UHGV virus genome: UHGV-0305822
Reading direction: 5' to 3' (one strand)
Length of the DNA: 64,000 nucleotides
Origin: a virus
In this document: one piece after another, positions 1,420 to 54,829 of the stretch
How positions within the stretch are numbered: position 1 is the first letter of the stretch
How the letters are laid out: each line of letters opens with the position of its first letter
The notes under the pieces: model-generated
The model's input: only the letters and a program-made list of their open reading frames with translations
The model's database searches: none
Told to the model about the DNA's origin: nothing
Position numbers and translations under genes: made by a program

Positions 1420-2268
1420 ATGTCTCTTACGTCAAAACAGAAACTGCTAAAACTCATCAACACTGAAAACAATATTGTTCCGCCATTGACCTTCAGTGAT
1501 GTTGATATCGGCGAACCTACTGGTACTGGGGTTGATACCCAGGTGGTTCTGACTTCTAAACTCAAAGGCGATGAGTCTACTACTTTAACTGTGACTTACC
1601 ATCGTCGTAATTTGCCCGAATACCTAACAGGTGAATTGGTATTCGGTAACGACGGTGTTGTAACCGCTACAGATTTGCTTAATGCAATCAACGCAAAATA
1701 CGATTTAAATATCCTGCCGTCGGATATCGTTGATGCGAAAGTTGAAGGTGAAACCCATCAGCTTACCGCTAACGAGAAATCCTACGAATGGTGTGGCGAG
1801 GTGACGCTTACGCTACGCGATCCTATTGATCTGGCTAAATTGTTACCTGTTACTCAATTAGAAAACCTGGTAGAGTATCCGTCCACTAAGAAAGGTAACG
1901 CAGCGGTTTATTCTTATCCAATTGACTTCACCGCAGAAAAAGATTACCTCGATCCGATTACCATTAACGACACTGTCGACCTGGCTGAGTTAGCCACTAA
2001 ACTGGTCAACGTCGTTGATGAGAAATGGGTAAGCGTACCTAAAAACGCTGCTAATAACCTCTACGGTGCTAAGGTTATCTACGATGGCCCTACCGCAGGT
2101 TACGAAGGTGCAAACACAAAGTACACACGTGTGTTGGTACTCGCACTCAGTGGACTGTGTGCTAACCTGACCGGTAATCTGTTAATCCACTTTAACGGTA
2201 CCGATCGTCCGAAGTCGAAGATTGAATTAGCTAAAACTAATTCGGTCTTACCGGGATTCTTAGATTAA
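1420..2268 (+). CDS. hypothetical protein, member 1 of 4-member paralog family (282 aa)
   Basis: N-terminal ~70 aa alignable by eye with ORFs 2282, 5423, 6034 (shared DV.FG.P ... NT.V.LT ... Y.R pattern). Confidence 0.6.
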   Translation: MSLTSKQKLLKLINTENNIVPPLTFSDVDIGEPTGTGVDTQVVLTSKLKGDESTTLTVTYHRRNLPEYLTGELVFGNDGVVTATDLLNAINAKYDLNILPSDIVDAKVEGETHQLTANEKSYEWCGEVTLTLRDPIDLAKLLPVTQLENLVEYPSTKKGNAAVYSYPIDFTAEKDYLDPITINDTVDLAELATKLVNVVDEKWVSVPKNAANNLYGAKVIYDGPTAGYEGANTKYTRVLVLALSGLCANLTGNLLIHFNGTDRPKSKIELAKTNSVLPGFLD

Positions 2269-2281
2269 GAGGATTACAGTA

Positions 2282-2758
2282 ATGACCAGTCAAGAAACTA
2301 TCTTCGACCTTATTAAAAAGGCTAACCCAGACGCTGAGCTTGACACCGCCAAAGTTACATTGGGTGTGCCCGTCGTAAGTACCGGTGCGTACAACACCGA
2401 AGTTACGGTTGCGTCAATTAAGAATCTCGGTTATGCTAATAAGCAAACGTTCCAGTATAACCGCATTGATGCAGGTTTGTATTTCCTCAACGTATTGCCG
2501 AAACTGTTAGTTGAATCAGCCACCACGACTGCGGACCTGCTGCCTGTAATTAACGAGCAGTATGGCTTAACCCTTACTGAAGACGACGTATGGGTAGAGC
2601 AGGTTGGTGAGTTACCGCTGGACGGCAGTGCAATCGAGCACGGCATTTTCTTCCGTCCTGAGTGCCTAACCTGGGTCGGTGGTTTTACAGTGCGCGTTGC
2701 GCGTAAACCGACTGTTGAAACACCGCCAGCTAATCCATCGCGCGCTAAGAAGAAATAA
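2282..2758 (+). CDS. hypothetical protein, paralog family member 2 (158 aa)
   Basis: RBS AAGAGGA; N-terminal similarity to 1420/5423/6034 products. Confidence 0.6.
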   Translation: MTSQETIFDLIKKANPDAELDTAKVTLGVPVVSTGAYNTEVTVASIKNLGYANKQTFQYNRIDAGLYFLNVLPKLLVESATTTADLLPVINEQYGLTLTEDDVWVEQVGELPLDGSAIEHGIFFRPECLTWVGGFTVRVARKPTVETPPANPSRAKKK

Positions 2759-2763
2759 CGACA

Positions 2764-2797
2764 GGGTGGGGTAATCCCACCCTCTTTTCTTTTTTTG
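2764..2797 (+). terminator. rho-independent terminator candidate
   Basis: GGGTGGG...CCCACCC stem followed by TCTTTTCTTTTTTTG. Confidence 0.55.
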
Positions 2798-2819
2798 TGT
2801 AAAAGAGGAGTTAAACGAA

Positions 2820-3410
2820 ATGGCCGAACGTTGGACTAAAGAAGGTATTATTGCTTCGAAAACAGATTTAGAAGGTGGGTACGTGAACGACCCCGACGAT
2901 AAAGGTGGGGAAACCTGTCACGGCGTAACACTAACAACTGCACGCGAATACGGGTATAAAGGGAGAATGAAGGATCTGACCCGTGCGCAGGCGTTTGATA
3001 TTTACGATCGCGGTTGGTGGAAGAAACTTAAACTCGATGAGATTTTAGCTATTTCACCCTTACTCGCAGACCGGATGTTTGATTTTGCTATTAACTCTGG
3101 CCGCGTTAACTGTGTGAAATCGTTACAACGTATTCTGAACGTTTTAAATAACGAAGGGAAACTTTACGCAGATATTGACACCGACGGCGGTATGGGACCT
3201 AAAACGCTAGGTGCCCTGAATGCTTATCTGAATTACCGTAAAGACGAGGGGTTAGGCATCTTAATCTTTGCCTTAATCTCACACCAGGTAACTTACTACA
3301 CAGAAATCTCCGAAAAGCGTAAGAAGAATGAAAAATTCGCTTACGGTTGGTATGCACGTGTGTTCAGGGAAATGCCGGATTATGTAGTGAAGGCGGGGTT
3401 AGTAAAATGA
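2820..3410 (+). CDS. GH108-type lysozyme with putative peptidoglycan-binding domain (endolysin-like)
   Basis: Motif EGGYVNDPDDKGGETCHGVT matches the GH108 signature (EGGY.NDP.D.GG.T..G); C-terminal region resembles PG_binding_3-type domain; RBS AAAGAGGAG. Confidence 0.7.
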   Translation: MAERWTKEGIIASKTDLEGGYVNDPDDKGGETCHGVTLTTAREYGYKGRMKDLTRAQAFDIYDRGWWKKLKLDEILAISPLLADRMFDFAINSGRVNCVKSLQRILNVLNNEGKLYADIDTDGGMGPKTLGALNAYLNYRKDEGLGILIFALISHQVTYYTEISEKRKKNEKFAYGWYARVFREMPDYVVKAGLVK

Positions 3411-3511
3411 ACTGGTTTGCTAAACTCTTAGCGTTATTGTGGAAAGCGTTAACGTCTGGGCGGAAACGTAAAGACGAAAAGCGTGGATACGAATTTTTCT
3501 GGTTTCTATAA
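3407..3511 (+). CDS. small ORF (34 aa, amphipathic/basic), start overlaps lysozyme stop (ATGA)
   Basis: MNWFAKLLALLWKALTSGRKRKDEKRGYEFFWFL; not in ORF track (short); ATGA overlap suggests translational coupling; function unknown. Confidence 0.25.
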   Translation: MNWFAKLLALLWKALTSGRKRKDEKRGYEFFWFL

Positions 3512-3526
3512 GGGAAGGTGTGGGTA

Positions 3527-4192
3527 ATGGAGAAGCTTCAATATAAACGTTTAGACAATAAGTGGTTTGTATTAACGGAGGATTACCATTATCCGTTTAC
3601 GTTACGTGAGATATATCACGACCACGTACACTTAGACCGTGCGGTTTATTTAACGGGTGTATTGCCTGACACACAATTGTGGTTAACGGCACCGAAAGGG
3701 TTCGTTACCGATTTAGCGTCAATTCCTGAACACCTCCAGGGAATTTTCCATCCTGACGGGCCGTGGGCACCTGCGGCCTGCATTCACGACCTACTCTATC
3801 AAAAATGCAGTACGGAACGGAGCTATCCCATGACACCGGGTGGTAACGTTTCGCGTTTTATCGATAAAGAGTTTTCTGACTTAACGTTCCTGCGTATTAT
3901 GCAGTCGTTGGAAATCTCGCCTTATATCTGCCAAACATTTTATAAGGCCGTCGTTGAATTCGGCTGGGATGCCTACGTAGATCCTAATGCAAAGCCATCC
4001 TACAACACTAACGCGTTTCGTACGTTAGATTATAATCGAAACTATTTATTCGTTCGCGAGTTTAAGGAACCTGCAATACCTGACCACGAACGTATTGATA
4101 TCACCACAGATCAGCCCGTTAATGTCAAATACCTGAACATTAAACGTGCTTTTCTGTCTGGGAGGGAAGATGTTTCATCCAAATCCGAGTAA
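3527..4192 (+). CDS. DUF1353-like protein
   Basis: Motif GFVTDLASIP ... AACIHDLLYQ resembles DUF1353 (G..TDGASIP ... HD.LY); ATG at 3527 after GGGAAGGTG (ORF track start 3518 is GTG). Confidence 0.5.
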   Translation: MEKLQYKRLDNKWFVLTEDYHYPFTLREIYHDHVHLDRAVYLTGVLPDTQLWLTAPKGFVTDLASIPEHLQGIFHPDGPWAPAACIHDLLYQKCSTERSYPMTPGGNVSRFIDKEFSDLTFLRIMQSLEISPYICQTFYKAVVEFGWDAYVDPNAKPSYNTNAFRTLDYNRNYLFVREFKEPAIPDHERIDITTDQPVNVKYLNIKRAFLSGREDVSSKSE

Positions 4193-4685
4193 CTTTAAAC
4201 TCAAAGAGTTAGTACCACAGTCTTATATTGCCAAATACGGCGATTCTGCAATTCGGTTTATGAATCCGTTGTTAATGATTTCGCTACAACAGATTCGTAA
4301 CCGTTTCGGTAGAATGGTCATTAACTCAACTACCGCACAACAACGTGGCCTAAGAACCTTAGACTTCTTTATCAATCAAGAAAAGCCTAAAGGCGGTAAC
4401 TATAAACAACGTGCTTTACAACTCTACTCTGATTCAGGAAGTCAACACAAATTCGGTAATGCGATTGACGCAACGTTGTTGGACAGTACCGTAAAGCAGG
4501 TTCACGACTACATCGCCGCTAACCCTGATGAGTTTCCGTTCATTCACTTTATTGAATGCGACATCAGTTGGTTACACATCGACGTTCGTAACCAACCTAA
4601 CATTACTTTCTGGTCACCAAATCGAGGTACTGTGAAAGTGGTTAAGCAAAAACCAATCGATTGGAGCGCCTTAGTCGAGATTTAA
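4170..4685 (+). CDS. peptidase M15-like (zinc D,D- or L-Ala-D-Glu peptidase fold) candidate
   Basis: SQHKFGNAIDA (S.H..G.A.D) and WLHIDV (W.H.D) resemble M15 metal-binding motifs; ATG at 4170 after GGGAGGGAAG; overlaps upstream gene by 23 nt. Confidence 0.45.
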   Translation: MFHPNPSNFKLKELVPQSYIAKYGDSAIRFMNPLLMISLQQIRNRFGRMVINSTTAQQRGLRTLDFFINQEKPKGGNYKQRALQLYSDSGSQHKFGNAIDATLLDSTVKQVHDYIAANPDEFPFIHFIECDISWLHIDVRNQPNITFWSPNRGTVKVVKQKPIDWSALVEI

Positions 4686-4770
4686 CTATTTCTAAGGTGT
4701 TTATACCTTATTTTGTATAAAGACGCTTAGAATGCGTTCTACGCACGATTTGGCGGTTAAAATGAATATA

Positions 4771-4805
4771 CCCTACTCCTTAACGGGAGTAGGGTAGTTT
4801 TTATT
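4771..4805. terminator. bidirectional terminator hairpin between convergent genes
   Basis: Stem CCCTACTCC / GGAGTAGGG, loop TTAACG, followed by TAGTTTTTATT; same stem recurs at 45813 and 46429. Confidence 0.6.
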
Positions 4806-5283
4806 ATTCCGCAGGATGGAGCATTGTTCCGGTGTCAGGAGCTACACCTTCTTTACAGTGGAAGAAAGTAATGCCTTTACCATCACCCGTTTTATATTCT
4901 AAAGTAGAATACGCAAACGTTGGCGTTTTTGAAAGTAACCCATTTACACGGTAGTAACGTTGCCCCGTGATAGGATCGATATTTCCATTAACTTTACCTA
5001 ATAAATCTTTATAAAGTTGGGGTGACTCAATCTTACCATTTGGCCAAGTGGCTACCCAGTTAGCGCCAGTATCGATTACAGTTACTGAACCTAACATTAG
5101 GTTAGTCGAGCTGACGACAGGTTTGTAATTTACAAAATCCTGCTCTACGCCCATACAGGTGTAAATAACCATGTCGTGTGGCTCTACGGGTACAGTTGAG
5201 AATTGGCCATTACTATTCGGTTGTAAAGCACATCCTGCTAATGAAAAAACACCAACCATAGCGATAAGAAAACGTTTTAGCAT
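4804..5283 (-). CDS. predicted lipoprotein (159 aa)
   Basis: N-terminal signal peptide with lipobox LAGC (MLKRFLIAMVGVFSLAGCALQ); convergent to the hydrolase cassette. Confidence 0.6.
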   Translation of the reverse strand: MLKRFLIAMVGVFSLAGCALQPNSNGQFSTVPVEPHDMVIYTCMGVEQDFVNYKPVVSSTNLMLGSVTVIDTGANWVATWPNGKIESPQLYKDLLGKVNGNIDPITGQRYYRVNGLLSKTPTFAYSTLEYKTGDGKGITFFHCKEGVAPDTGTMLHPAE

Positions 5284-5422
5284 GTTTTCACCTTTTATAA
5301 AAAAAGTTAAAAATAATAATTTTACAGACGACCCTTACTGCCATCTGTCATAACTATTAAAACCACTTCTATAATCCGAACAATACTATGCAATCCACCC
5401 TGCCACACACGAGGTAAAAACG

Positions 5423-5968
5423 ATGGCTAAAGCTTTCAATCTGCAGCTCATTGAAGCTGTTAAAGCTAAAAACCCTGAAACTGCTTCTAAACTGACCGTA
5501 AATGATGTCGATTTCGGGGCCGTAGAAGCTTACACCCCGACCGGTAAAAGCGACGCCCGTAACACTAAAGTTGTCCTGACAGCGAAAGAAAGCAGCGCTA
5601 ACTTCACCGGTAATAAAGAATTTCATTATATCCGTCTGGCTTCCGCTAACCTGATTGGTGCCAAAGCTTACCAACAGGAAGGTAGCCTCGACCTGGAAAA
5701 TGACGCTATCGTAACCAAACTCAATCAAGAAATGGTTACTAAAGGTTATGTCGATGACGCGTTCGCTGCAGGTGAACTCACTATTGAGAAAACTAATGGC
5801 GAGAGCGGTGCTAAGGTTTACACTATCAAAGTAAATGCTGGGCACATTAAATTCCTACCAGGTACCATTGCCACCTTCACCTATACCAACCCGGTTCCTC
5901 CGAAGGTAGCTCTGAGCGGCCTGGAAGGTGAACTGGACGGTTTCACCGCACCGTCTCCTAAAGAGTAA
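5423..5968 (+). CDS. hypothetical protein, paralog family member 3 (181 aa)
   Basis: N-terminal similarity to 1420/2282/6034 products; C-terminal GELDGFT motif shared with 6034 product; candidate TATAAT at ~5381. Confidence 0.6.
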   Translation: MAKAFNLQLIEAVKAKNPETASKLTVNDVDFGAVEAYTPTGKSDARNTKVVLTAKESSANFTGNKEFHYIRLASANLIGAKAYQQEGSLDLENDAIVTKLNQEMVTKGYVDDAFAAGELTIEKTNGESGAKVYTIKVNAGHIKFLPGTIATFTYTNPVPPKVALSGLEGELDGFTAPSPKE

Positions 5969-5972
5969 TTAA

Positions 5973-6008
5973 ATCGGGGAGGGGGTAACCTCCCCGATAT
6001 TTCTTTAA
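5973..6008 (+). terminator. rho-independent terminator candidate
   Basis: Stem ATCGGGGAGG / CCTCCCCGAT followed by ATTTCTTT. Confidence 0.55.
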
Positions 6009-6033
6009 CTCGTACTATTAAGGATTTAAGATA

Positions 6034-6564
6034 ATGGCAGCTACTAACCAGATGATGTTGGTCGCGCTTTATAATGCTGCTAACACTGAGCTACCACATC
6101 AGATTACTGATAAAGAAGTGTCCTTTGGTTTGCCTACTGCGCTGGAAGGCGAAGGTAAGAATACCAAAGTTACCATGACTGCACTGCCGGGTTCTGAGAA
6201 TTTCAAAGGCGCAATCGAACTGCATTACGATCGTCTGGAGCCGGGTGTTGTAGGTCGTATTGAACTAACTGACGATCTGTCTCGTTGGGAAGATCAAAAC
6301 GAATTGCGCGCATGGTTACAATATTACATCAATAAAGTTAAACCGGACGATGCTATTCATCCAGCGGACGTTTCTTATTCTACCGAAGACCAGAAAGACG
6401 AACATGAAAACGTCACTCTGCGTACCGTGACGTGCACCGTTACCGAAAAGAACCTCCGTTATAAACCAGGTGTAATGGCAACTTTCGTAATTACGCCGAA
6501 AGTTGTCGATAATCGTATTGACCTGGCCACCACCAACGGTGAGCTGGACGGCTTTACGTCCTAA
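6034..6564 (+). CDS. hypothetical protein, paralog family member 4 (176 aa)
   Basis: N-terminal similarity to 5423 product; C-terminal GELDGFTS. Confidence 0.6.
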   Translation: MAATNQMMLVALYNAANTELPHQITDKEVSFGLPTALEGEGKNTKVTMTALPGSENFKGAIELHYDRLEPGVVGRIELTDDLSRWEDQNELRAWLQYYINKVKPDDAIHPADVSYSTEDQKDEHENVTLRTVTCTVTEKNLRYKPGVMATFVITPKVVDNRIDLATTNGELDGFTS

Positions 6565-6565
6565 G

Positions 6566-6624
6566 AAAAAATAAAAAAAAATACCTACCTCCTATTACGG
6601 GAGGTAGGTATACTATTTTTTTTT
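6566..6624. terminator. bidirectional terminator (A-run, hairpin, T-run)
   Basis: AAAAAATAAAAAAAAA + stem TACCTACCTCC/GGAGGTAGGTA + TTTTTTTTT between convergent genes ending 6564 (+) and 6634 (-). Confidence 0.65.
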
Positions 6625-6633
6625 CGCTGTCGA

Positions 6634-7305
6634 TTACAGCCCTTGCTCTAACGCAAACGCTTTAATTGAATCGTAATCACGTGCTTCAGCCCAAGCCCTG
6701 ACTTCTCTTTTCTGCTCAGACATTGCGTGGTGTAGTCTTTGATCGCGCTCAACGATTGCTGCCAGCAACGTCTTGCACTGTTCTAACGTAAACGGTTCGA
6801 TACGGGTGTTGTTAGCCGTTAACCAATACGCTGGCGCAGTTTCTGACTGAATATAACGACTCAGTGCTACCTGTGACTTCTCATCTGCCTGGAAAGTGAA
6901 ATCACCTACCTGAATCTCAGCATAGCGTGCATCTTGATAACGGAATTCCAAAGCGCTTAGAATTTTCTGAACATCGGTAAAGATGTACCGCACCGTGGAA
7001 CGTAAACCTGTACGAATTTCTTCCAGGTCAATCCCCAACGTGTCGTTAACAAAGTCTTTCGCTTTCTGTAGCGTAAACCGTGCTTCGATTTCAGACATGT
7101 CGTAGTTACGCATTTGTTCCAATGCTTCGCGATCAGACATCCCATCAATCAACTTATAATGCAGTAACGCACAAAACCCTGTACGGCCGTGATCTTCGCT
7201 ACCGATTTTCTCCATGTAGTTACCATGACGGTCAATCGGTAAATCGTGCGCAAAATAACGGCGACGGATTTCTTCTTTCGTTAAGCCTTCACCAGTAGCA
7301 GACAT
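6634..7305 (-). CDS. hypothetical protein (223 aa), last gene of radical-SAM operon
   Basis: Long ORF, start overlaps upstream gene by 25 nt (translational coupling); no confident motif. Confidence 0.5.
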   Translation of the reverse strand: MSATGEGLTKEEIRRRYFAHDLPIDRHGNYMEKIGSEDHGRTGFCALLHYKLIDGMSDREALEQMRNYDMSEIEARFTLQKAKDFVNDTLGIDLEEIRTGLRSTVRYIFTDVQKILSALEFRYQDARYAEIQVGDFTFQADEKSQVALSRYIQSETAPAYWLTANNTRIEPFTLEQCKTLLAAIVERDQRLHHAMSEQKREVRAWAEARDYDSIKAFALEQGL

Positions 7306-7853
7306 TCATCGTCTCCTTTAATCAACCCTAATTCGATTAACAGTTCAAAATCGATATGACGGAATCTTGTGTCGAAGTCCGATTCCCAATCGATACGGAT
7401 ACCCTGGCATTCTTCTGGCGTTAGCTCAGGAAAAATCACGCTATTAAATTTCTCCCGCTCATCGTAAAACCCATCAATCGGTGAGTTCGGGTTACGTGTT
7501 GCGAAGATAGTAATGCCGGGGAAGGACAATGCCAACACAGTGATAGATTCTGCGCTGGGTTCGCTTAAAGAGCGGCGTAGAAACGCAATTTTGTGACGTG
7601 GGAAATCCAATACCCGTTCTTCAAACCCTGGGTTACGTTTTTCAATTTCCGCAACCGACAGGTCAGTAAGTTCGGTGCAGTACATTGGGATGATTACAGT
7701 CACGCCGTGACGAATCAGTAAGCGTTTTACGTCATCGGTGAAATCTTCACCGTTAATCACCACATAACAACCGAATAGCTTACTGTTTTCCAGAAACTTA
7801 TCCAGAAGTCGAATTCTACGCTTCGTAATATTGTTGATCAGAATTGGTTTCAT
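7281..7853 (-). CDS. hypothetical protein (190 aa)
   Basis: Long ORF overlapping both neighbours (7281-7305 and 7816-7853) on same strand. Confidence 0.5.
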   Translation of the reverse strand: MKPILINNITKRRIRLLDKFLENSKLFGCYVVINGEDFTDDVKRLLIRHGVTVIIPMYCTELTDLSVAEIEKRNPGFEERVLDFPRHKIAFLRRSLSEPSAESITVLALSFPGITIFATRNPNSPIDGFYDEREKFNSVIFPELTPEECQGIRIDWESDFDTRFRHIDFELLIELGLIKGDDECLLLVKA

Positions 7854-9138
7854 CTTTGGCTTCTCTTAATAATTTTTCCTTTTGGGCACGTTCACGAACA
7901 CAGCGTGGGCAATAACACATGCTCGTGTCGTGGAACGCTTTTGCTGACGTCGTACCCATCTTCTGTTTCCAGTATTCCGCCACCATCAGTTTCGCTGTCG
8001 TCCAGCCACACTGACGTCGTTCAGCGTGATACGCCTTACGGTCTTCTAACGTCCCTTCCCCGTTCTCGTAAGAAGCCGCTGCGCAGCTACCACAAGCGTG
8101 TTTCATCGGACAACCTAAACAGGTCTCTGGGTAGTTGGTATATTGCGTTTGAATCTCTTCTAACAATTTACCGTTGTCCAGACTGACGAATTCCCGACCT
8201 ACCAACTCAAACACCGCAGAACGCGACGTTACCGTTGACATAAAGCGGTTACAGCCAAAGATCTTACGGTCAAATCCTAAGCACGTCATGTGCGTTAACG
8301 TCCCACAAAACGGACGTAAACGTTCTGGGTTCAGCCGTACGGTGTCATTATACAGTAACTGGTCACGCCAGTTCGGTTCCCAAATCGTATCGAAATCCAA
8401 CCCTTCTGGAATGATGTGCGATAAGATATTACGTGGGTTGGTGTGTAATCCTTTCTCAACCCAGTAATCTATCACATCCATCATCTGTAACGCGATTGAC
8501 GTCGCCATGCTACGTGGCATAACGTCTTCGAAAGTTACGTTTCCAGAAATTGTCCCACCGCCAGTAATGTCAATTAATGACTTCATCCCCGCAGCATAGA
8601 ACGGCAGCGTTTCTAACGTAAAGGTTGCTTTTACGCCGAGCTCTGCAATGCCAACCTCTTTTAAGTAGTTATAGCCACGTACTGCGGCTTCGTAAGAACC
8701 CTGGCGTGTTGTTGTGAAGATACGATAACGGTCATGGGATTCAGGTAAGCCATCAATCGAAACCCCAACCGAAAGTTTATCTTTCCAACGTTCTACAATC
8801 TCACGGTTCAACGGACGATCTAACAGCGTTCCGTTCGTGGAGATACTAAACATAAACGGTCGGTTGTGTTCTTTACACAACTGCTCAGCGGTTTCAAACG
8901 CAGCCAGCAGCAGTTTAGGCTGCATGAACGGCTCACCACCGATAATGTCGATAATAACTTCAACATTCGGTTCGTTTTTATCACGTTCAAAACAGGCGTG
9001 TAAGAAATCAACAATATCCGCCGCTTTGTTGTTACGCGGGTACTTACGTTCGTAACAATATTCGCAGTCCAAGTTACACGAAAGGTTGGTTACGATCTGA
9101 TACGTTAACTGCTTAGGGAATTCATTTACTTGACTCAT
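7816..9138 (-). CDS. radical SAM enzyme with SPASM-type C-terminal Cys cluster (peptide/protein-modifying maturase candidate)
   Basis: N-terminal CNLDCEYC (Cx3Cx2C radical SAM 4Fe-4S motif); GGEPF SAM-binding-like motif; C-terminal FCG...C...C and CLGCPMKHACGSC clusters typical of SPASM auxiliary Fe-S domains. Confidence 0.8.
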   Translation of the reverse strand: MSQVNEFPKQLTYQIVTNLSCNLDCEYCYERKYPRNNKAADIVDFLHACFERDKNEPNVEVIIDIIGGEPFMQPKLLLAAFETAEQLCKEHNRPFMFSISTNGTLLDRPLNREIVERWKDKLSVGVSIDGLPESHDRYRIFTTTRQGSYEAAVRGYNYLKEVGIAELGVKATFTLETLPFYAAGMKSLIDITGGGTISGNVTFEDVMPRSMATSIALQMMDVIDYWVEKGLHTNPRNILSHIIPEGLDFDTIWEPNWRDQLLYNDTVRLNPERLRPFCGTLTHMTCLGFDRKIFGCNRFMSTVTSRSAVFELVGREFVSLDNGKLLEEIQTQYTNYPETCLGCPMKHACGSCAAASYENGEGTLEDRKAYHAERRQCGWTTAKLMVAEYWKQKMGTTSAKAFHDTSMCYCPRCVRERAQKEKLLREAKDETNSDQQYYEA

Positions 9139-10045
9139 TTGCCGCCCCTCTATTACGCCCTGCCATCACTACGCGACGAATATATTCGTACGCCTCTACA
9201 CCGATAGAGAAGGCCAGTTGGTTACATCCCGATTCCAGAACGTTAGGTGCATTCTGGAGTTGGTGCTCACCACCGTCTGCATTAATCCAAAGACTTTCGC
9301 TGCAAACGTTACACCCTTCTTCAAACACTTTACTTACTGTAAAGCCGCATTCACGACCATTTACTACATTCAGTCGTTCAATGTTATCCTGAACCTGATA
9401 GTAGCCGTAAATAAAGTTCATGACGTGGTCAGGCGATAAAGGTTTTGGCATTTTCGCATCTAAGAGTAACGTCATTGCACGGAAACCGTAATGGTAAATC
9501 GCGCTGTGCAGCTGAATAATATCTTCGTGCCAGCGTTTGTCCCCTAAACGGTCCCGTGTCAGGACACCCCAAGTCTGGACATTATCCAGCTCGTAGATCG
9601 TTTCCAGTGCTTCGTAACAGCCTTCGTCAATAAAGCGCATAAACGGGCGCTCAGACGACTTAAACCCATCGATGCTAACGTAGACATTGTCAAACTGTTT
9701 TAGCAACGGGAGATGCGATTTACGCATCTTTAAGCCATTGGTATACAACTGGTGTTTGAGTTCTGGACGAATCACTTTTAATTCGTCAACAAACGCCTCA
9801 ATTTTACGGGTTGCCAGTAATGGCTCACCACCCGTCCACTGAATTTCGGTAATGGTTGGATTAGCTTCCAGCGCTTCCAAAATTCGCTCACGTTGAAACT
9901 CTCGCGGAGAATCTTCACGATTCATGTAATAGGCTCCACCGCAGAAGCTACAATCCAGGTTGCACTTGGACGTAGCGACTACGGACAATACGGTGGGTTT
10001 ATCGTATAAACGATTCGATAACCTTGGTTCTGCATTGGTTGTCAT
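9122..10045 (-). CDS. radical SAM enzyme (second, shorter; partial auxiliary Cys cluster)
   Basis: CNLDCSFCGG (Cx3Cx2C); GGEPLL motif; C-terminal ECGF...CNVCSE Cys cluster; overlaps downstream rSAM start by 17 nt. Confidence 0.75.
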   Translation of the reverse strand: MTTNAEPRLSNRLYDKPTVLSVVATSKCNLDCSFCGGAYYMNREDSPREFQRERILEALEANPTITEIQWTGGEPLLATRKIEAFVDELKVIRPELKHQLYTNGLKMRKSHLPLLKQFDNVYVSIDGFKSSERPFMRFIDEGCYEALETIYELDNVQTWGVLTRDRLGDKRWHEDIIQLHSAIYHYGFRAMTLLLDAKMPKPLSPDHVMNFIYGYYQVQDNIERLNVVNGRECGFTVSKVFEEGCNVCSESLWINADGGEHQLQNAPNVLESGCNQLAFSIGVEAYEYIRRVVMAGRNRGAANESSK

Positions 10046-11103: not shown

Positions 11104-11310
11104 TTACCTTCCCCCCGCACCTTTACTACAGCTACCACTGCACGACCAGCTACATCCGCCGTTACAGTTATAATGGCTTAAAGGTAAACCGGCAAGGTTA
11201 TTGGTTGAAGACACAGTGCCCTGGTTTGCAATATAGTTGTTTGCGTTAGCGGTCGTAATATACCCTTCCGCTGTTACTAACCGATCACGAAGGTTCTTAA
11301 GGCTAATCAC
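11104..11310 (-). CDS. Cys-rich leader+core protein C (short core, ~68 aa)
   Basis: ORF track start 11340 is TTG and overlaps gene B; GTG at 11310 preceded by GGGAGG gives MISLKNLRDRL...HYNCNGGCSWSCSGSCSKGAGGR; N-terminus similar to protein A. Confidence 0.5.
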   Translation of the reverse strand: MISLKNLRDRLVTAEGYITTANANNYIANQGTVSSTNNLAGLPLSHYNCNGGCSWSCSGSCSKGAGGR

Positions 11311-11312
11311 AA

Positions 11313-11711
11313 TTACCTCCCAGAACACCCACCAGAACAACTACCTGAGCAGCCTGCAGAACAGTTTCCTACACACGAGTTAGAACAACTCCCCGTACAG
11401 CTTCCTGAACAGCCACCAGAACAGGTATTCGAACATCCACTACAGCCTGCACTACAACCTGATACACAGTTTGCAGAACACGAAGAACCACAGCCGCCTG
11501 ATGCGTTCCCTGTACAACCACCAGAACAGCTCGAACAGGTCCAGCTACAGCTCCCACCACAGTCATAGTGGTTGCGAGCTTGCCCACCGAATAAGTCTGC
11601 GTTGTTCGTCGCTTTCCCACGAATATAGTTTTGTACTGCACCCGTATTCTTCAATGCAGTGTTGTCAATGTTATTTAGCCGCGCTTGTAGCGCAGGTAAT
11701 CCAATTGCCAT
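11313..11711 (-). CDS. Cys-rich leader+core protein B (132 aa)
   Basis: ~50-aa Cys-free N-terminal segment then HYDCGGSCSWTCS followed by ~80 aa of CSG/CTG repeats (about 25 Cys). Confidence 0.6.
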   Translation of the reverse strand: MAIGLPALQARLNNIDNTALKNTGAVQNYIRGKATNNADLFGGQARNHYDCGGSCSWTCSSCSGGCTGNASGGCGSSCSANCVSGCSAGCSGCSNTCSGGCSGSCTGSCSNSCVGNCSAGCSGSCSGGCSGR

Positions 11712-11721
11712 TTTTCACCTC

Positions 11722-12120
11722 TTAGGTTGGGCCAGAACAGCCACCAGAGCAAGCACCAGAACAACCCGTAGAACAACGGCCCGAGCAAGCACCCCCACAG
11801 GTCCCACTGCAACCTGAGCAGCCACCGGAACACGTTGAACTACATCCAGTACACTGGTTACCGCACGCAGAGGAGCAGCTACCTACACACACTGACGTAC
11901 AGGTGCCCGAACAACTCGTACAGCCATGCGTACAACCGTTTGAGCACGTCCAGCTGCAACTCCCCCCGCAGTCTAACCGACTTGGCGTCCAACCCGAAAA
12001 AGTGTCGGCGGCATTATGTGCTTTCGACGCAACTTGCGGATCAACACGTGGGCCAGTTGCCATTTGGTTCTCTACGTTGGTGATTCGGTCACGTACATTT
12101 TTAACACTGATCGCCATCAC
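11722..12120 (-). CDS. Cys-rich leader+core protein A (132 aa)
   Basis: N-terminal MAISVKNVRDRITNVENQ..., junction RLDCGGSCSWTCS, then Cys/Gly/Ser/Thr repeats; GTG-ATG start with AAGGA RBS. Confidence 0.6.
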   Translation of the reverse strand: MMAISVKNVRDRITNVENQMATGPRVDPQVASKAHNAADTFSGWTPSRLDCGGSCSWTCSNGCTHGCTSCSGTCTSVCVGSCSSACGNQCTGCSSTCSGGCSGCSGTCGGACSGRCSTGCSGACSGGCSGPT

Positions 12121-43763: not shown

Positions 43764-44269
43764 GCATCGTAGTAACCGATTGGTATAAAGGCATTACAAA
43801 AGCCGCACAATTGACCGCGAAAGACGTTTACAGTATCGTCCGAAGCAGTATCGAAGACGAGATTAAGTCGGATGAAGAATTCGCAGAGAAACACGAATTT
43901 TACGATGCTTTACCCACAGCATTCGGTGACGACGAAGAAGAAGGTTTAGAGTTTGACTGGAACGTCAACCTTGCCTTGTTGTGGATTTGTGGTTTACGAC
44001 CAACGGTAAAAGAAACCGAAGAAGGGAAAGTCTTGCTTTGGAATTTTACCGGGCAGTATAACCGTAATTTAGTCTTTAAACAGGCGTATATGGACGCTAC
44101 TGTAGAACTTCAAAATCTACTGCTTGGCGAAAACACATACTGCCAACGCAGTTTCTTAACGATTCTGGAAAAACTTGTGTCGACACACAAAGTCTGGCGT
44201 AAAGAAGACGCCCCGGAACATATGTTCATTTTAGAGTACGCTGTCATTCCAAATCAGCCGTTCTTCTAA
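43760..44269 (+). CDS. hypothetical protein (169 aa)
   Basis: TTG start overlapping upstream stop, GAGGAG RBS. Confidence 0.45.
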   Translation: MSIVVTDWYKGITKAAQLTAKDVYSIVRSSIEDEIKSDEEFAEKHEFYDALPTAFGDDEEEGLEFDWNVNLALLWICGLRPTVKETEEGKVLLWNFTGQYNRNLVFKQAYMDATVELQNLLLGENTYCQRSFLTILEKLVSTHKVWRKEDAPEHMFILEYAVIPNQPFF

Positions 44270-44275
44270 CCTCTA

Positions 44276-44313
44276 CCCCTTACCCTATACGGAGTAAGGG
44301 GTACTTTTATTTT
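44276..44313 (+). terminator. terminator candidate
   Basis: CCCCTTA ... TAAGGGG stem with long loop followed by TACTTTTATTTT. Confidence 0.4.
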
Positions 44314-44335
44314 CATTCCCTAAAGGAGCAGAGTT

Positions 44336-44815
44336 ATGATAAAATTCATTTGGCGTTATCCAACGCGTTTTTGGTTTGTGGTACTTGAACTGTGTATGGT
44401 TCTTGTAGCGGTTACTTTTGTCGAAGCACCCGCCTCGCAGTTGGCCATTTTCTGCCTTTTCGTGACTGTCCCTGTATGGGTGATTGCGAAGGTTATTAAG
44501 TTCGTCATGGTGTGTTGGGCGAATTATACCTGTCCGTATAAGCCTAAACAAATCATGAAATGGCTGATGTATATTGAAGAACGTTTACCGGCGCAACATA
44601 AATTACTGGGCTGGTCGTCAATGTTGGATATTGCGCTAGAAACCAATGCAAAGTTCCCCGGTGCGAAAAACCCGTATTTGTTGATGGCGGTAATTGTTGC
44701 ACAACAAAAACTGGCAGGTGACCGTTGGTTGCCAGAAGAAGCGAAAGCGTATATCCGTAAACATCCAAAAGCTTTTTACTCGGTAGGACAATGGCGTAAC
44801 TTGCCTTTATTTTAA
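44336..44815 (+). CDS. membrane protein (159 aa)
   Basis: Two hydrophobic segments (FWFVVLELCMVLVAVTFV; LAIFCLFVTVPVWVIAKVI); RBS AAAGGAG. Confidence 0.55.
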   Translation: MIKFIWRYPTRFWFVVLELCMVLVAVTFVEAPASQLAIFCLFVTVPVWVIAKVIKFVMVCWANYTCPYKPKQIMKWLMYIEERLPAQHKLLGWSSMLDIALETNAKFPGAKNPYLLMAVIVAQQKLAGDRWLPEEAKAYIRKHPKAFYSVGQWRNLPLF

Positions 44816-53777: not shown

Positions 53778-54302
53778 GTGGATATTTTAATTCAGCTTCG
53801 TAAGAAAACAACCATTGCCACACCGATAGCGCTAGAGGAGAAAATCTCTGGCGCAGTTGCACGCAAGCTCTGTGGTGCTCATGGCTTTAGCGACCATCAG
53901 GAGCGGGTCGTTACTGTCGCCACATTACACAACTTACGTCACACAGTGCATTACTGTTTAGTTGACAACGTCACCATCACTCTTGATGATAACGTAAATG
54001 TCGACCAACTGCGACGCGAAATTGTCCACAAGATCGAGGCTTACAATAGACGTTTCGATCGGGCGTGTACGCGTTTAACTAATGACGAGGCACTACGAAA
54101 ACGTTTGAAACTTGAAATCGAATATGCAGCGCAACGATACGGGATTGGCGGTACCGAACCGTGTCTGACTGAACAAGAAATCACGTTAGCAATTGAGGTT
54201 TATACCACTCTCTGTTGCGCCATCCTAAAAGAGACCAACCACGAAATTACAAAAGCGTTGTTAAACACCGCAGACAAACTCTCCCCAATTTTAGGACAAT
54301 AA
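53778..54302 (+). CDS. hypothetical protein (174 aa)
   Basis: GTG start after AAAGGAG. Confidence 0.5.
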   Translation: MDILIQLRKKTTIATPIALEEKISGAVARKLCGAHGFSDHQERVVTVATLHNLRHTVHYCLVDNVTITLDDNVNVDQLRREIVHKIEAYNRRFDRACTRLTNDEALRKRLKLEIEYAAQRYGIGGTEPCLTEQEITLAIEVYTTLCCAILKETNHEITKALLNTADKLSPILGQ

Positions 54303-54303
54303 A

Positions 54304-54792
54304 ATGAACGTAAATGATATTATCAATCTTAGTAAAAGTGATATTGTGCACGAATTTCTCAATCACGGTGCGCGTGTAAGAAAAGAAATTGAAGAAAAGT
54401 TGACCCCAATGGTTGCTTCCACTCCTTGGATGGCAGGATACGCCGCTGCCTACTTCAGTTGCCAGAGCGGAAAAGCATACATAGCTAACCTGTTTGATTT
54501 CTTCAATCCATCAAACGACCACATAACAGAAACAGACGTTCGACAACGCCTTCGCGATTGCCGGTATCAGTTCTTAAGAAATGTTACTGATGCGTACAAT
54601 TTAGAGCAATTTCCTACACCGATTGTTCCCTATACAGAACCGGAATGGGAAAATTTTTATAGACGAATTTGGATTGGTGGGTCTTACGTGGCAGATATAA
54701 TGGAAATCATCGAACGTAGTGAAAACCAACTTGCTCTGCAACTATGGGAGTGGTTAAAAGCTAATTATCCTGATTACGTCAAAATCGACTAA
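54304..54792 (+). CDS. hypothetical protein (162 aa)
   Basis: ATG 2 nt after upstream stop. Confidence 0.5.
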   Translation: MNVNDIINLSKSDIVHEFLNHGARVRKEIEEKLTPMVASTPWMAGYAAAYFSCQSGKAYIANLFDFFNPSNDHITETDVRQRLRDCRYQFLRNVTDAYNLEQFPTPIVPYTEPEWENFYRRIWIGGSYVADIMEIIERSENQLALQLWEWLKANYPDYVKID

Positions 54793-54798
54793 TACACA

Positions 54799-54829
54799 CC
54801 CTAGCTTCGGCTAGGGTTACTTTATTTTT
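54799..54829 (+). terminator. rho-independent terminator
   Basis: Stem CCCTAGC / GCTAGGG, loop TTCG, then TTACTTTATTTTT. Confidence 0.6.

Follow-up and report, generated by a model that had tools for sequence, protein, structure and literature searches.

The question raised by positions 1,420 to 6,564 of the virus genome UHGV-0305822 is what the four related open reading frames (ORFs) found there encode, and where on the virus particle their products are located. The window analysed here, that is, the whole stretch of DNA, comprises 64,000 nucleotides, and the four ORFs, all on the plus strand, are referred to as A (1420-2268), B (2282-2758), C (5423-5968), and D (6034-6564). It is essentially certain that A-D are paralogs within the DUF7941 family, which is the "virion paralog family B" of SPN3US. 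Proteins of this family rank among the most abundant components of the virion in the nucleus-forming jumbo phages, and their location and role are disputed. The family and its abundance have already been published, and the locus as a discovery is incremental; the new elements are the identification of GELDGFT as the linker motif of the family, a member (B) that consists of the N-terminal domain (NTD) only, a hypervariable cassette in C, and a complete relative with eight members. The best-supported model, inferred from these features and judged moderately probable, is a head-to-tail chain with A as its anchor, B as its cap, and C and D as its subunits.

The features on which this account is based are listed below, where CTD is the C-terminal domain, A2 is a family-wide alignment that includes the SPN3US paralogs, and L003-L007 are the loci of the relatives.

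1420 to 2268, plus strand: A, full-length DUF7941 protein of 282 amino acids (aa), with the NTD at about 1-135, the linker at aa 136-154, the CTD at about 160-260, and a lineage-specific tail
Residues 136-154 of A: linker motif IDLAKLLPVTQLENLVEYP
2221 to 2265, plus strand: extra C-terminal tail of A, IELAKTNSVLPGFLD (aa 268-282), a second linker-like motif
2282 to 2758, plus strand: B, NTD-only DUF7941 protein of 158 aa
5423 to 5968, plus strand: C, NTD and linker, phrog_4862 subfamily, 181 aa
5440 to 5890, plus strand: hypervariable core of C, an allele-swapped block with a nucleotide identity to L007 of 30-70%
5903 to 5947, plus strand: linker motif of C, KVALSGLEGELDGFT (aa 161-175), aligned with the post-NTD linker of the full-length paralogs
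6034 to 6564, plus strand: D, NTD and linker, phrog_4862 subfamily, 176 aa, a conserved paralog of C
6514 to 6558, plus strand: linker motif of D, RIDLATTNGELDGFT (aa 161-175), in alignment A2

All four proteins exceed the curated gathering score of PF25613 (DUF7941), which is 27 bits. The match of A reaches 182.8 bits (1.2e-53) and covers profile positions 5-275 of 276, that of B reaches 102.3 bits (4.1e-29) over profile positions 7-155 only, and those of D and C reach 39.7 bits (5.2e-10) and 31.8 bits, respectively. A and B fall into phrog_1037/2935, annotated as "virion structural protein" (A against phrog_1037, 1.2e-63), and C and D into phrog_4862 (D, 1.7e-34), with weaker matches to phrog_1037/2935. 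In phmmer searches, C and D recover several SPN3US paralogs at 1e-6 to 1e-8, and B recovers nine; A matches PHIKZ127 in the PDB entry 9xqd (E=7.4e-7) across the linker and the CTD, and nothing was found for C among the PDB sequences. The C/D family and the A-type family are linked by hhalign (E=3.9e-6, probability 87%) over residues 2-78 of C. A structure model searched against BFVD returned 47 matches at E<1e-3, every one of them a jumbo-phage protein. A local hidden Markov model (HMM) of the NTD, from whose training SPN3US gp144 and gp155 were left out, recovers exactly A-D in the window, with no other ORF at E<=10, and also recovers these two untrained proteins.

The pairwise statistics are clear for C and D, which align over their full length (blastp E=1.9e-16), and are marginal for the other pairs (A-C and A-D, E~0.002-0.004; A-B, 0.007; B-D, 0.011), with no significant similarity between B and C in pairwise blastp. 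Values of only 0.002-0.01 between the pairs, together with the non-significant B-C comparison, are what might be expected if the similarity were due to chance or composition, or if A-D were not expressed structural genes at all. This explanation has next to no probability, given that the Pfam, PHROG, profile-profile, and fold evidence is concordant, that purifying selection keeps the ORFs in many genomes, and that orthologs are detected by mass spectrometry. Paralogy is accepted here despite the marginal blastp values because the family-level tests are decisive.

The four ORFs are present as an earlier note on this DNA described them, and its proposal that two paralogous pairs share an N-terminal pattern is borne out by the profile-profile and Pfam evidence. 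The note confined this pattern to about 70 aa, which corresponds to the stretch matched by hhalign (C residues 2-78); the domain is indeed shared, but the homology spans the whole NTD of approximately 145 aa. The count of four members is correct for the window, but the complete relative has eight. A match to a common known domain, which the note regarded as grounds for abandoning its reading, was formally found through Pfam, but a DUF designation names the family rather than explaining it away. The four proteins are also distinct from the baseplate fibres of the phiKZ gp131 type (SPN3US paralog family C), to which no match was found in Pfam, PHROG, PDB, or fold comparisons; the relatives of gp131, with a gp131-like NTD and a beta-propeller CTD, are a different family.

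The NTD that the four proteins have in common, of about 145 aa, is an alpha/beta domain with the fold of the phiKZ gp127 NTD. Directly after it, A, C, and D carry a linker motif, [IV]-x-L-[AS]..L-x-G-[FL], which is not found in B. The note had remarked on the sequence GELDGFT in both C and D, and the two proteins do share this exact 7-mer, at residues 169-175 in each, within a common end pattern ..[IV]-x-L-[AS]-x-x-x-G-E-L-D-G-F-T. In alignment A2, GELDGF falls on the post-NTD linker of the full-length paralogs, such as IDLAKLLPVTQLENLVEYP in A, and the linkers of the SPN3US paralogs include ..TELSGLLYP, ..TKLDGLVYP, and others. The same motif is present in Goslar gp22/31/33/34 and in the tail of Goslar gp23 (QLATVLADNVADGF). 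These alignments indicate that GELDGFT is the conserved post-domain linker motif of the DUF7941 family, and is not private to C and D. A regular expression for the linker, run over 147 representatives, gave inconsistent fractions, and only the aligned examples are relied on here.

The CTD is matched in A, both by the Pfam profile and by the CTD of gp127, and B, C, and D are without it, like Goslar gp23 and phiKZ gp126 and gp143. B also lacks the linker, and finishes in a Pro/Ala-rich, Lys-rich tail (..RKPTVETPPANPSRAKKK) at the point where the linker would be expected. A recent truncation or pseudogene was considered for B, and was ruled out by its conserved length and sequence (158-159 aa, 91-97% conserved in five relatives), its low dN/dS (0.06-0.26), and the terminator that follows it immediately.

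The extra tail of A resembles the tail of D, IDLATTNGELDGF, with 53% identity between residues 266-280 of A and 160-174 of D (blastp E=0.036). It is kept in all the full-length homologs of A down to 79% identity, and is not present in the SPN3US, phiKZ gp127, or Goslar gp22 counterparts. A copy of the 3' end of D was ruled out as its origin, given the lack of similarity at the DNA level. Weak second matches of the NTD HMM were also observed in A and in several full-length SPN3US paralogs, over their final ~50 aa, a possible sign that the CTD of these proteins ends in a partial repeat of the NTD.

A new feature of the locus is C, a hypervariable cassette with sharp boundaries, whose ends, formed by the N-terminal helix and the linker motif, are conserved. 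Nucleotide identity to L007 is 95-100% across 10.5 kb apart from the block at ~5440-5890, and recovers over the last ~25 codons of C, which encode the linker motif, and over the terminator. The identity of the C protein in four relatives is 88, 78, 60, and 55%, compared with 91-100% for the flanking genes; A, B, and D are 91-99% identical in the relatives, and D alone is 95-99% identical. The dS of C is 1.0-1.3, against 0.07-0.3 in its neighbours, and its dN/dS is 0.17-0.40, against 0.02-0.1 nearby. The high dS therefore indicates long-standing alleles that are swapped through recombination, and not a recent acceleration. The 113 full-length homologs of C fall into at least 10 allele groups at 80% identity, and the lowest identity among them is 47%. 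When this variation is mapped on the secondary structure of the C model, the most variable segments are the loops at 31-47 and 85-92, and the linker at 156-175 is the most conserved; the entropy of the linker motif (aa 161-175) across the 113 alleles is 0.44. The search of a large database returned 118 clusters for C (52-98% identity) and 25 for A, nearly all of these at 91-94%. Variation of this type points to the exposure of the core of C to something outside the architecture of the virion itself, that is, the surface of the host or a host sensor.

A mechanism that would account for this architecture is the assembly of A-D head-to-tail, in which a protomer docks by its linker on the NTD of its neighbour, so that flexible chains attached to the virion are formed. 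The NTD-linker-CTD protein A would serve as the anchor, comparable to phiKZ gp127, which is placed at the tip of the outer baseplate. B would be able to accept a linker, and unable to donate one, and could cap the chain in the manner modelled for gp126 on gp127. C and D would be high-copy chain subunits, like Goslar gp23 and SPN3US gp160, and the conserved ends of C would provide fixed interfaces, with the variable core as an exposed surface under diversifying pressure.

If separate proteins composed of an NTD and a linker line up in this way, covalent NTD-linker-NTD arrays would also be expected in the family. A profile search recovered 1,965 family representatives at E<=1e-3, and 48 of the 147 top representatives contain from two to five NTDs in one polypeptide. 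Two or three copies of DUF7941 are recognized by Pfam in the proteins P0180, P0182, P0184, and P0190, and the segments between the domains of the three tandem proteins examined (P0182, P0184, and P0190) carry the linker motif, for example, ..PLNTLYSTTQLAGFIYNG.. and ..NLAGLLDAIMDGFVYNN.. The conservation of the linker within an otherwise hypervariable C, together with these tandem arrays, may be taken as indirect support for the chains.

The published systems provide further comparisons. The Goslar preprint, which names DUF7941, estimates ~2,140 copies of gp23 and ~580 of gp22 per virion, and reports head-to-tail dimers predicted by AlphaFold in which the linker (+CTD) docks on the next NTD, and filaments of gp22 seen by negative stain (10.64898/2026.04.21.720040). 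It also fits a gp126-gp127 heterodimer into unexplained phiKZ density and proposes a "fibre cloud" anchored on the baseplate, with no mention of the tailless-head data from SPN3US (10.64898/2026.04.21.720040). A has the architecture of gp22, and C and D have that of gp23 (NTD and linker, ~180 aa); D matches gp23 by blastp (E=1.7e-9), with an LAT..DGF tail in common. In both Goslar and the window, DUF7941 genes adjoin an endolysin gene of the GH108 type. However, Goslar has ten members, several of them with glycan-binding or leucine-rich repeat (LRR) extensions, whereas the window has four, all short. In addition, gp22 is without the extra linker-like tail of A, and an NTD-only member of the B type is not highlighted in Goslar.

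In the phiKZ structural atlas, gp127 is docked in every star lobe of the outer baseplate, where the gp139 band ends (PMC13250141). The genes for gp127 (290 aa, full length) and gp126 (147 aa, NTD only) follow one another in phiKZ, as A and B do in the window, and gp143 (177 aa), of the C/D type, lies immediately upstream of the endolysin gp144. This phage differs from the window in that it has three members only, sequence identity is 15-26%, and the tail of gp143 has a repeated motif, R-[LY]-LENG. The parallel between A-B and gp127-gp126 may be convergent.

The locus is syntenic with that of SPN3US, in which the family comprises gp83, gp138-154, gp160/161, and gp237 (PMC5694885, PMC10052503). 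The order there is a virion-protein array, the endolysin, a DUF1353 gene, an M15-like gene, a minus-strand gene, gp160, a DUF4376 gene, and a radical-SAM pair. A is 45% identical to the first gene of the array, B is 40% identical to the NTD of gp141, its best match in SPN3US, and C is 47% identical to gp160. In SPN3US, however, 18 consecutive array genes (~20 kb) precede the endolysin, compared with only A and B in the window, and a single gene of the gp160 type corresponds to C and D; the proteins have been assigned to the head. Ali et al. (2017) counted 20 members of family B, with more than 300 copies per particle each of gp141 and gp160, and its persistence in a tailless mutant led them to place the family in the head (PMC5694885). 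In a follow-up published in 2023, which used another tailless mutant and two CsCl steps, gp160 was again scored as "Head", with 583 peptide-spectrum matches (PSM) in virions and 509 in heads (ratio 1.23), while the tail proteins fell more than 100-fold.

The abundance of these orthologs (gp160, gp141, gp23, and gp22) supports the suggestion that A-D are abundant small proteins of virion decoration or fibres, through relatives rather than through this phage directly, and A-D are probably late, very abundant virion proteins. A description as "virion decoration or fibre" is compatible with placement on either the baseplate or the head, and on this point the published evidence is in conflict. The baseplate is supported by the cryo-electron microscopy (cryo-EM) of phiKZ, by fusions with glycan-binding and tail-fibre-like domains, and by neighbouring tail genes; association with the head is supported by the tailless-head proteomics of SPN3US, which are robust. 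The hypervariable core of C does not discriminate between exposure to the host surface and exposure to a host sensor.

Several observations weigh against the chain model as it has been outlined here. SPN3US family B, gp160 included, remains at its full level in tailless heads purified twice in CsCl, which argues against an attachment that depends purely on the baseplate. No filament cloud has been seen on virions, and the Goslar model is explicitly speculative (10.64898/2026.04.21.720040). B is not specifically closest to phiKZ gp126 (E=0.62). The AlphaFold2 (AF2) model of A is poor beyond the NTD (pLDDT 58.8), with an alignment that is shallow because the search of the large database gave only homologs at >=79% identity. 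The dN/dS of C is below 1, and positive selection is not demonstrated. The idea that the alleles of C track the genus of the host is also unsupported, given that allele groups are shared between records from Salmonella, E. coli, and Shigella.

One way of accommodating the SPN3US data is to place the family, and the high-copy C/D type above all, inside the capsid, from which the proteins would be delivered into the host, with the variability of C reflecting an arms race with intracellular defences. The hyperplastic internal-protein loci of the T-even phages represent the comparison for an arms race of this kind. An internal location would agree with the classification of gp160 and gp148-155 as "Head" in two different tailless SPN3US mutants, in which gp160 is undiminished, with the label "Head ejection?" applied by Ali et al. 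(PMC5694885), and with the nature of C as an allele-swapped cassette. It is, however, unlikely, given that the phiKZ model puts gp127 on the outer face of the baseplate, that gp22, once purified, assembles into long filaments, and that carbohydrate-binding, glycosidase, LRR, and tail-fibre-like domains occur in fusions with members of the family. Most of the other members in the relative's genome adjoin tail-fibre or tape-measure genes, and Table 1 of Ali et al. gives no processing by the prohead protease for gp160, gp141, or gp143 (PMC5694885). A location on the outer face of the capsid, as fibres comparable to Hoc or to head-fibre adhesins, with or without further attachment at the six baseplate sites, would bring the results from SPN3US and phiKZ into agreement. 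It would also fit the retention of the proteins on tailless heads through buoyant-density gradients, copy numbers comparable with those of the capsid proteins, the fusions to glycan-binding domains, and a variable, presumably exposed, core in C. This is nevertheless quite unlikely, as such fibres have never been observed directly, and gp127, on the baseplate, is the only member modelled in the phiKZ atlas and the Goslar reconstruction, although flexible fibres would average out.

Beyond the chain model itself, C invites comparison with the bacterial filaments. Flagellin and type IV pilin are polymer subunits in which conserved, interface-forming termini surround a recombining variable central region. 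C likewise has conserved termini, as putative assembly interfaces, around a recombining hypervariable centre, and this is an analogy only, given that no sequence or fold relationship was found between C and flagellin or pilin. By this analogy, it is possible, if tentative, that C is the exposed, antigenically or adhesively variable subunit of a virion filament, that allele swaps at this one locus, across the ~250 known genomes of the proposed genus "Bapsvirus", tune recognition of the host surface or the evasion of a host sensor that detects abundant virion protein, and that B, as a dedicated terminator of the chain, sets the length of the filament.

The lineage of the window can be placed through its relatives. 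A megablast search of the locus against the INPHARED phages gave no match at the DNA level, and the protein matches are all in jumbo phages of 218-312 kb, the best of them (45-49%) in SPN3US-like phages of Salmonella and Erwinia. Synteny with SPN3US (Seoulvirus, Chimalliviridae) extends over thirteen genes, at 45-82% amino-acid identity. Closer relatives, with C at 75-98%, are contigs of ~220-227 kb, assembled from Salmonella, E. coli, and Shigella isolates or from metagenomes, and include two circular "plasmids" of complete genomes, from E. coli 98232 (NZ_CP173450.1, 221,873 bp) and Enterobacter ludwigii (NZ_CP134650.1, 222,441 bp). Judging from these matches, the sequence most likely belongs to a Salmonella/E. 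coli phage of ~222 kb from the Chimalliviridae, of the type of the recently recognized, proposed genus "Bapsvirus" (PMC12768965). The occurrence of relatives as contigs of isolates and as circular "plasmids" matches the carrier-state idea of the same study (PMC12768965).

A scan of the whole NZ_CP173450.1 genome recovered eight short DUF7941 members, including the orthologs of A-D. The four additional genes, all beyond the region that the window covers, lie at 44085-44597, 54264-54827, 73927-74454, and 189719-190282; the list of their products below does not follow the order of these coordinates.

RS25715: 187 aa, two genes downstream of a 7.1-kb SLT-domain gene, which is taken to be the tape measure on account of its length
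RS25070: 187 aa, two genes from tail-protein and tail-fibre genes
RS25040: 170 aa, two genes from a "receptor-recognizing protein"
RS25230: 175 aa, DUF7941 member

The two of these genes that are near the tail-fibre and "receptor-recognizing protein" genes have a different tail, ..D-x-VLTF.., and the remaining two have an L-x-L-D-G-[FL] linker. The number of C/D-type copies at the site also varies, with one in SPN3US, two in the window, and three in L006, where a third gene after D (11208-11738) encodes 176 aa, 42% identical to C, with a tail ..SELDGFT.

DUF7941 is largely confined to the nucleus-forming jumbo phages (Chimalliviridae), and may not be strictly specific to the chimalliviruses. 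The first ~70 aa of the NTD (C residues 9-67) resemble repeats of ~70-80 aa in surface proteins of the Mollicutes type, such as the DUF285 protein P0208 and the lipoprotein P0270, which matches Phyto-Amp and Spiralin, and C has a weak match to Spiralin (E=0.026). A 2026 paper describes DUF7941 in Spaid-like proteins of Spiroplasma. In these surface proteins, only part of the domain matches, and the biological setting differs.

The remaining features of the locus concern the genes between the pairs, and the signals that separate them.

1260 to 1287: terminator-like hairpin before A (-20.2 kcal/mol, T-run)
2763 to 2783, plus strand: intrinsic terminator after B (9-bp stem, 6 GC pairs, T-run, -15.5 kcal/mol)
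2820 to 3410, plus strand: endolysin with GH108 and PG_binding_3 domains (Pfam 1e-23 and 1.6e-16), 61% identical to the annotated SPN3US endolysin
3407 to 3511, plus strand: ORF of 34 aa, amphipathic and cationic (MNWFAKLLALLWKALTSGRKRKDEKRGYEFFWFL), directly after the GH108 endolysin
3518 to 4192, plus strand: DUF1353 protein (Pfam 1.2e-14; phrog_1158, "tail assembly chaperone", 8.9e-59)
4146 to 4685, plus strand: endolysin-like protein with an H..D..H pattern of the M15/LAS type (phrog_894, "endolysin", 1.3e-28)
4769 to 4796, both strands: bidirectional terminator between the cassette and the minus-strand lipoprotein gene (-20.4 kcal/mol)
4804 to 5283, minus strand: lipoprotein-like gene of 159 aa, with a lipoprotein signal ..FSLAGC.. 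(phrog_9559)
5973 to 5998, plus strand: intrinsic terminator between C and D (10-bp stem, 7 GC pairs, -21.2 kcal/mol)
6581 to 6611, both strands: bidirectional terminator after D, common to the convergent DUF4376 gene (13-bp stem, T-runs on both strands, -24.9 kcal/mol)

The GH108, DUF1353, and phrog_894 genes between B and C agree with the view that the pairs flank a peptidoglycan-hydrolase cassette. The translation of 4146-4685 contains SQHKFGNAIDA...WLHID, and its ortholog in SPN3US, gp158, was scored as "non-virion". The 34-aa ORF, which may encode a lysis accessory peptide, is annotated as a gene in L003 and L005. The identity of the lipoprotein-like product falls to 72% in L005, against 92-97% for its neighbours there. 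The earlier note also placed a strong terminator after each pair; terminators do follow B and D, but an extra one splits C from D, so that A-B is one terminated unit, and C and D are each terminated separately. The high expression that it read from these terminators does not follow, given that a terminator is no evidence for the level of expression. An ACTAT core is found upstream of A, C, and D (~1350-1362, 5383-5390, and 6013-6018), as TACTAT before C and D and GACTAT before A, with a trailing G in C only, and is a possible late-promoter element.

Downstream, the DUF4376 gene (6634-7305, minus strand) and its neighbour (7281-7853, minus strand) constitute a second mosaic block, in which the proteins are 52-71% identical in L003 and L005, and 99-100% identical in L006 and L007. 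The radical-SAM gene that adjoins this block is 85% identical in L003 and L005, and the radical-SAM pair (7816-9138 and 9122-10045, minus strand) is conserved with SPN3US, at 82% identity. No transfer RNAs (tRNAs) are present in the 64-kb window.

The locus represents a compact natural system, with one gene of the putative anchor type, one of the cap type, and two of the chain type. There are hundreds of sequenced relatives in which one of the chain-type genes is cassette-swapped in nearly identical surroundings, and the contrast between the alleles of C could be set against the surface type or the defence content of the host. The hypervariable C, the NTD-only B, and the GELDGFT linker could thus help to settle the question of DUF7941, and, if the reading of C as a variable filament subunit is true, it would be the first genetic handle on the function of DUF7941 filaments.

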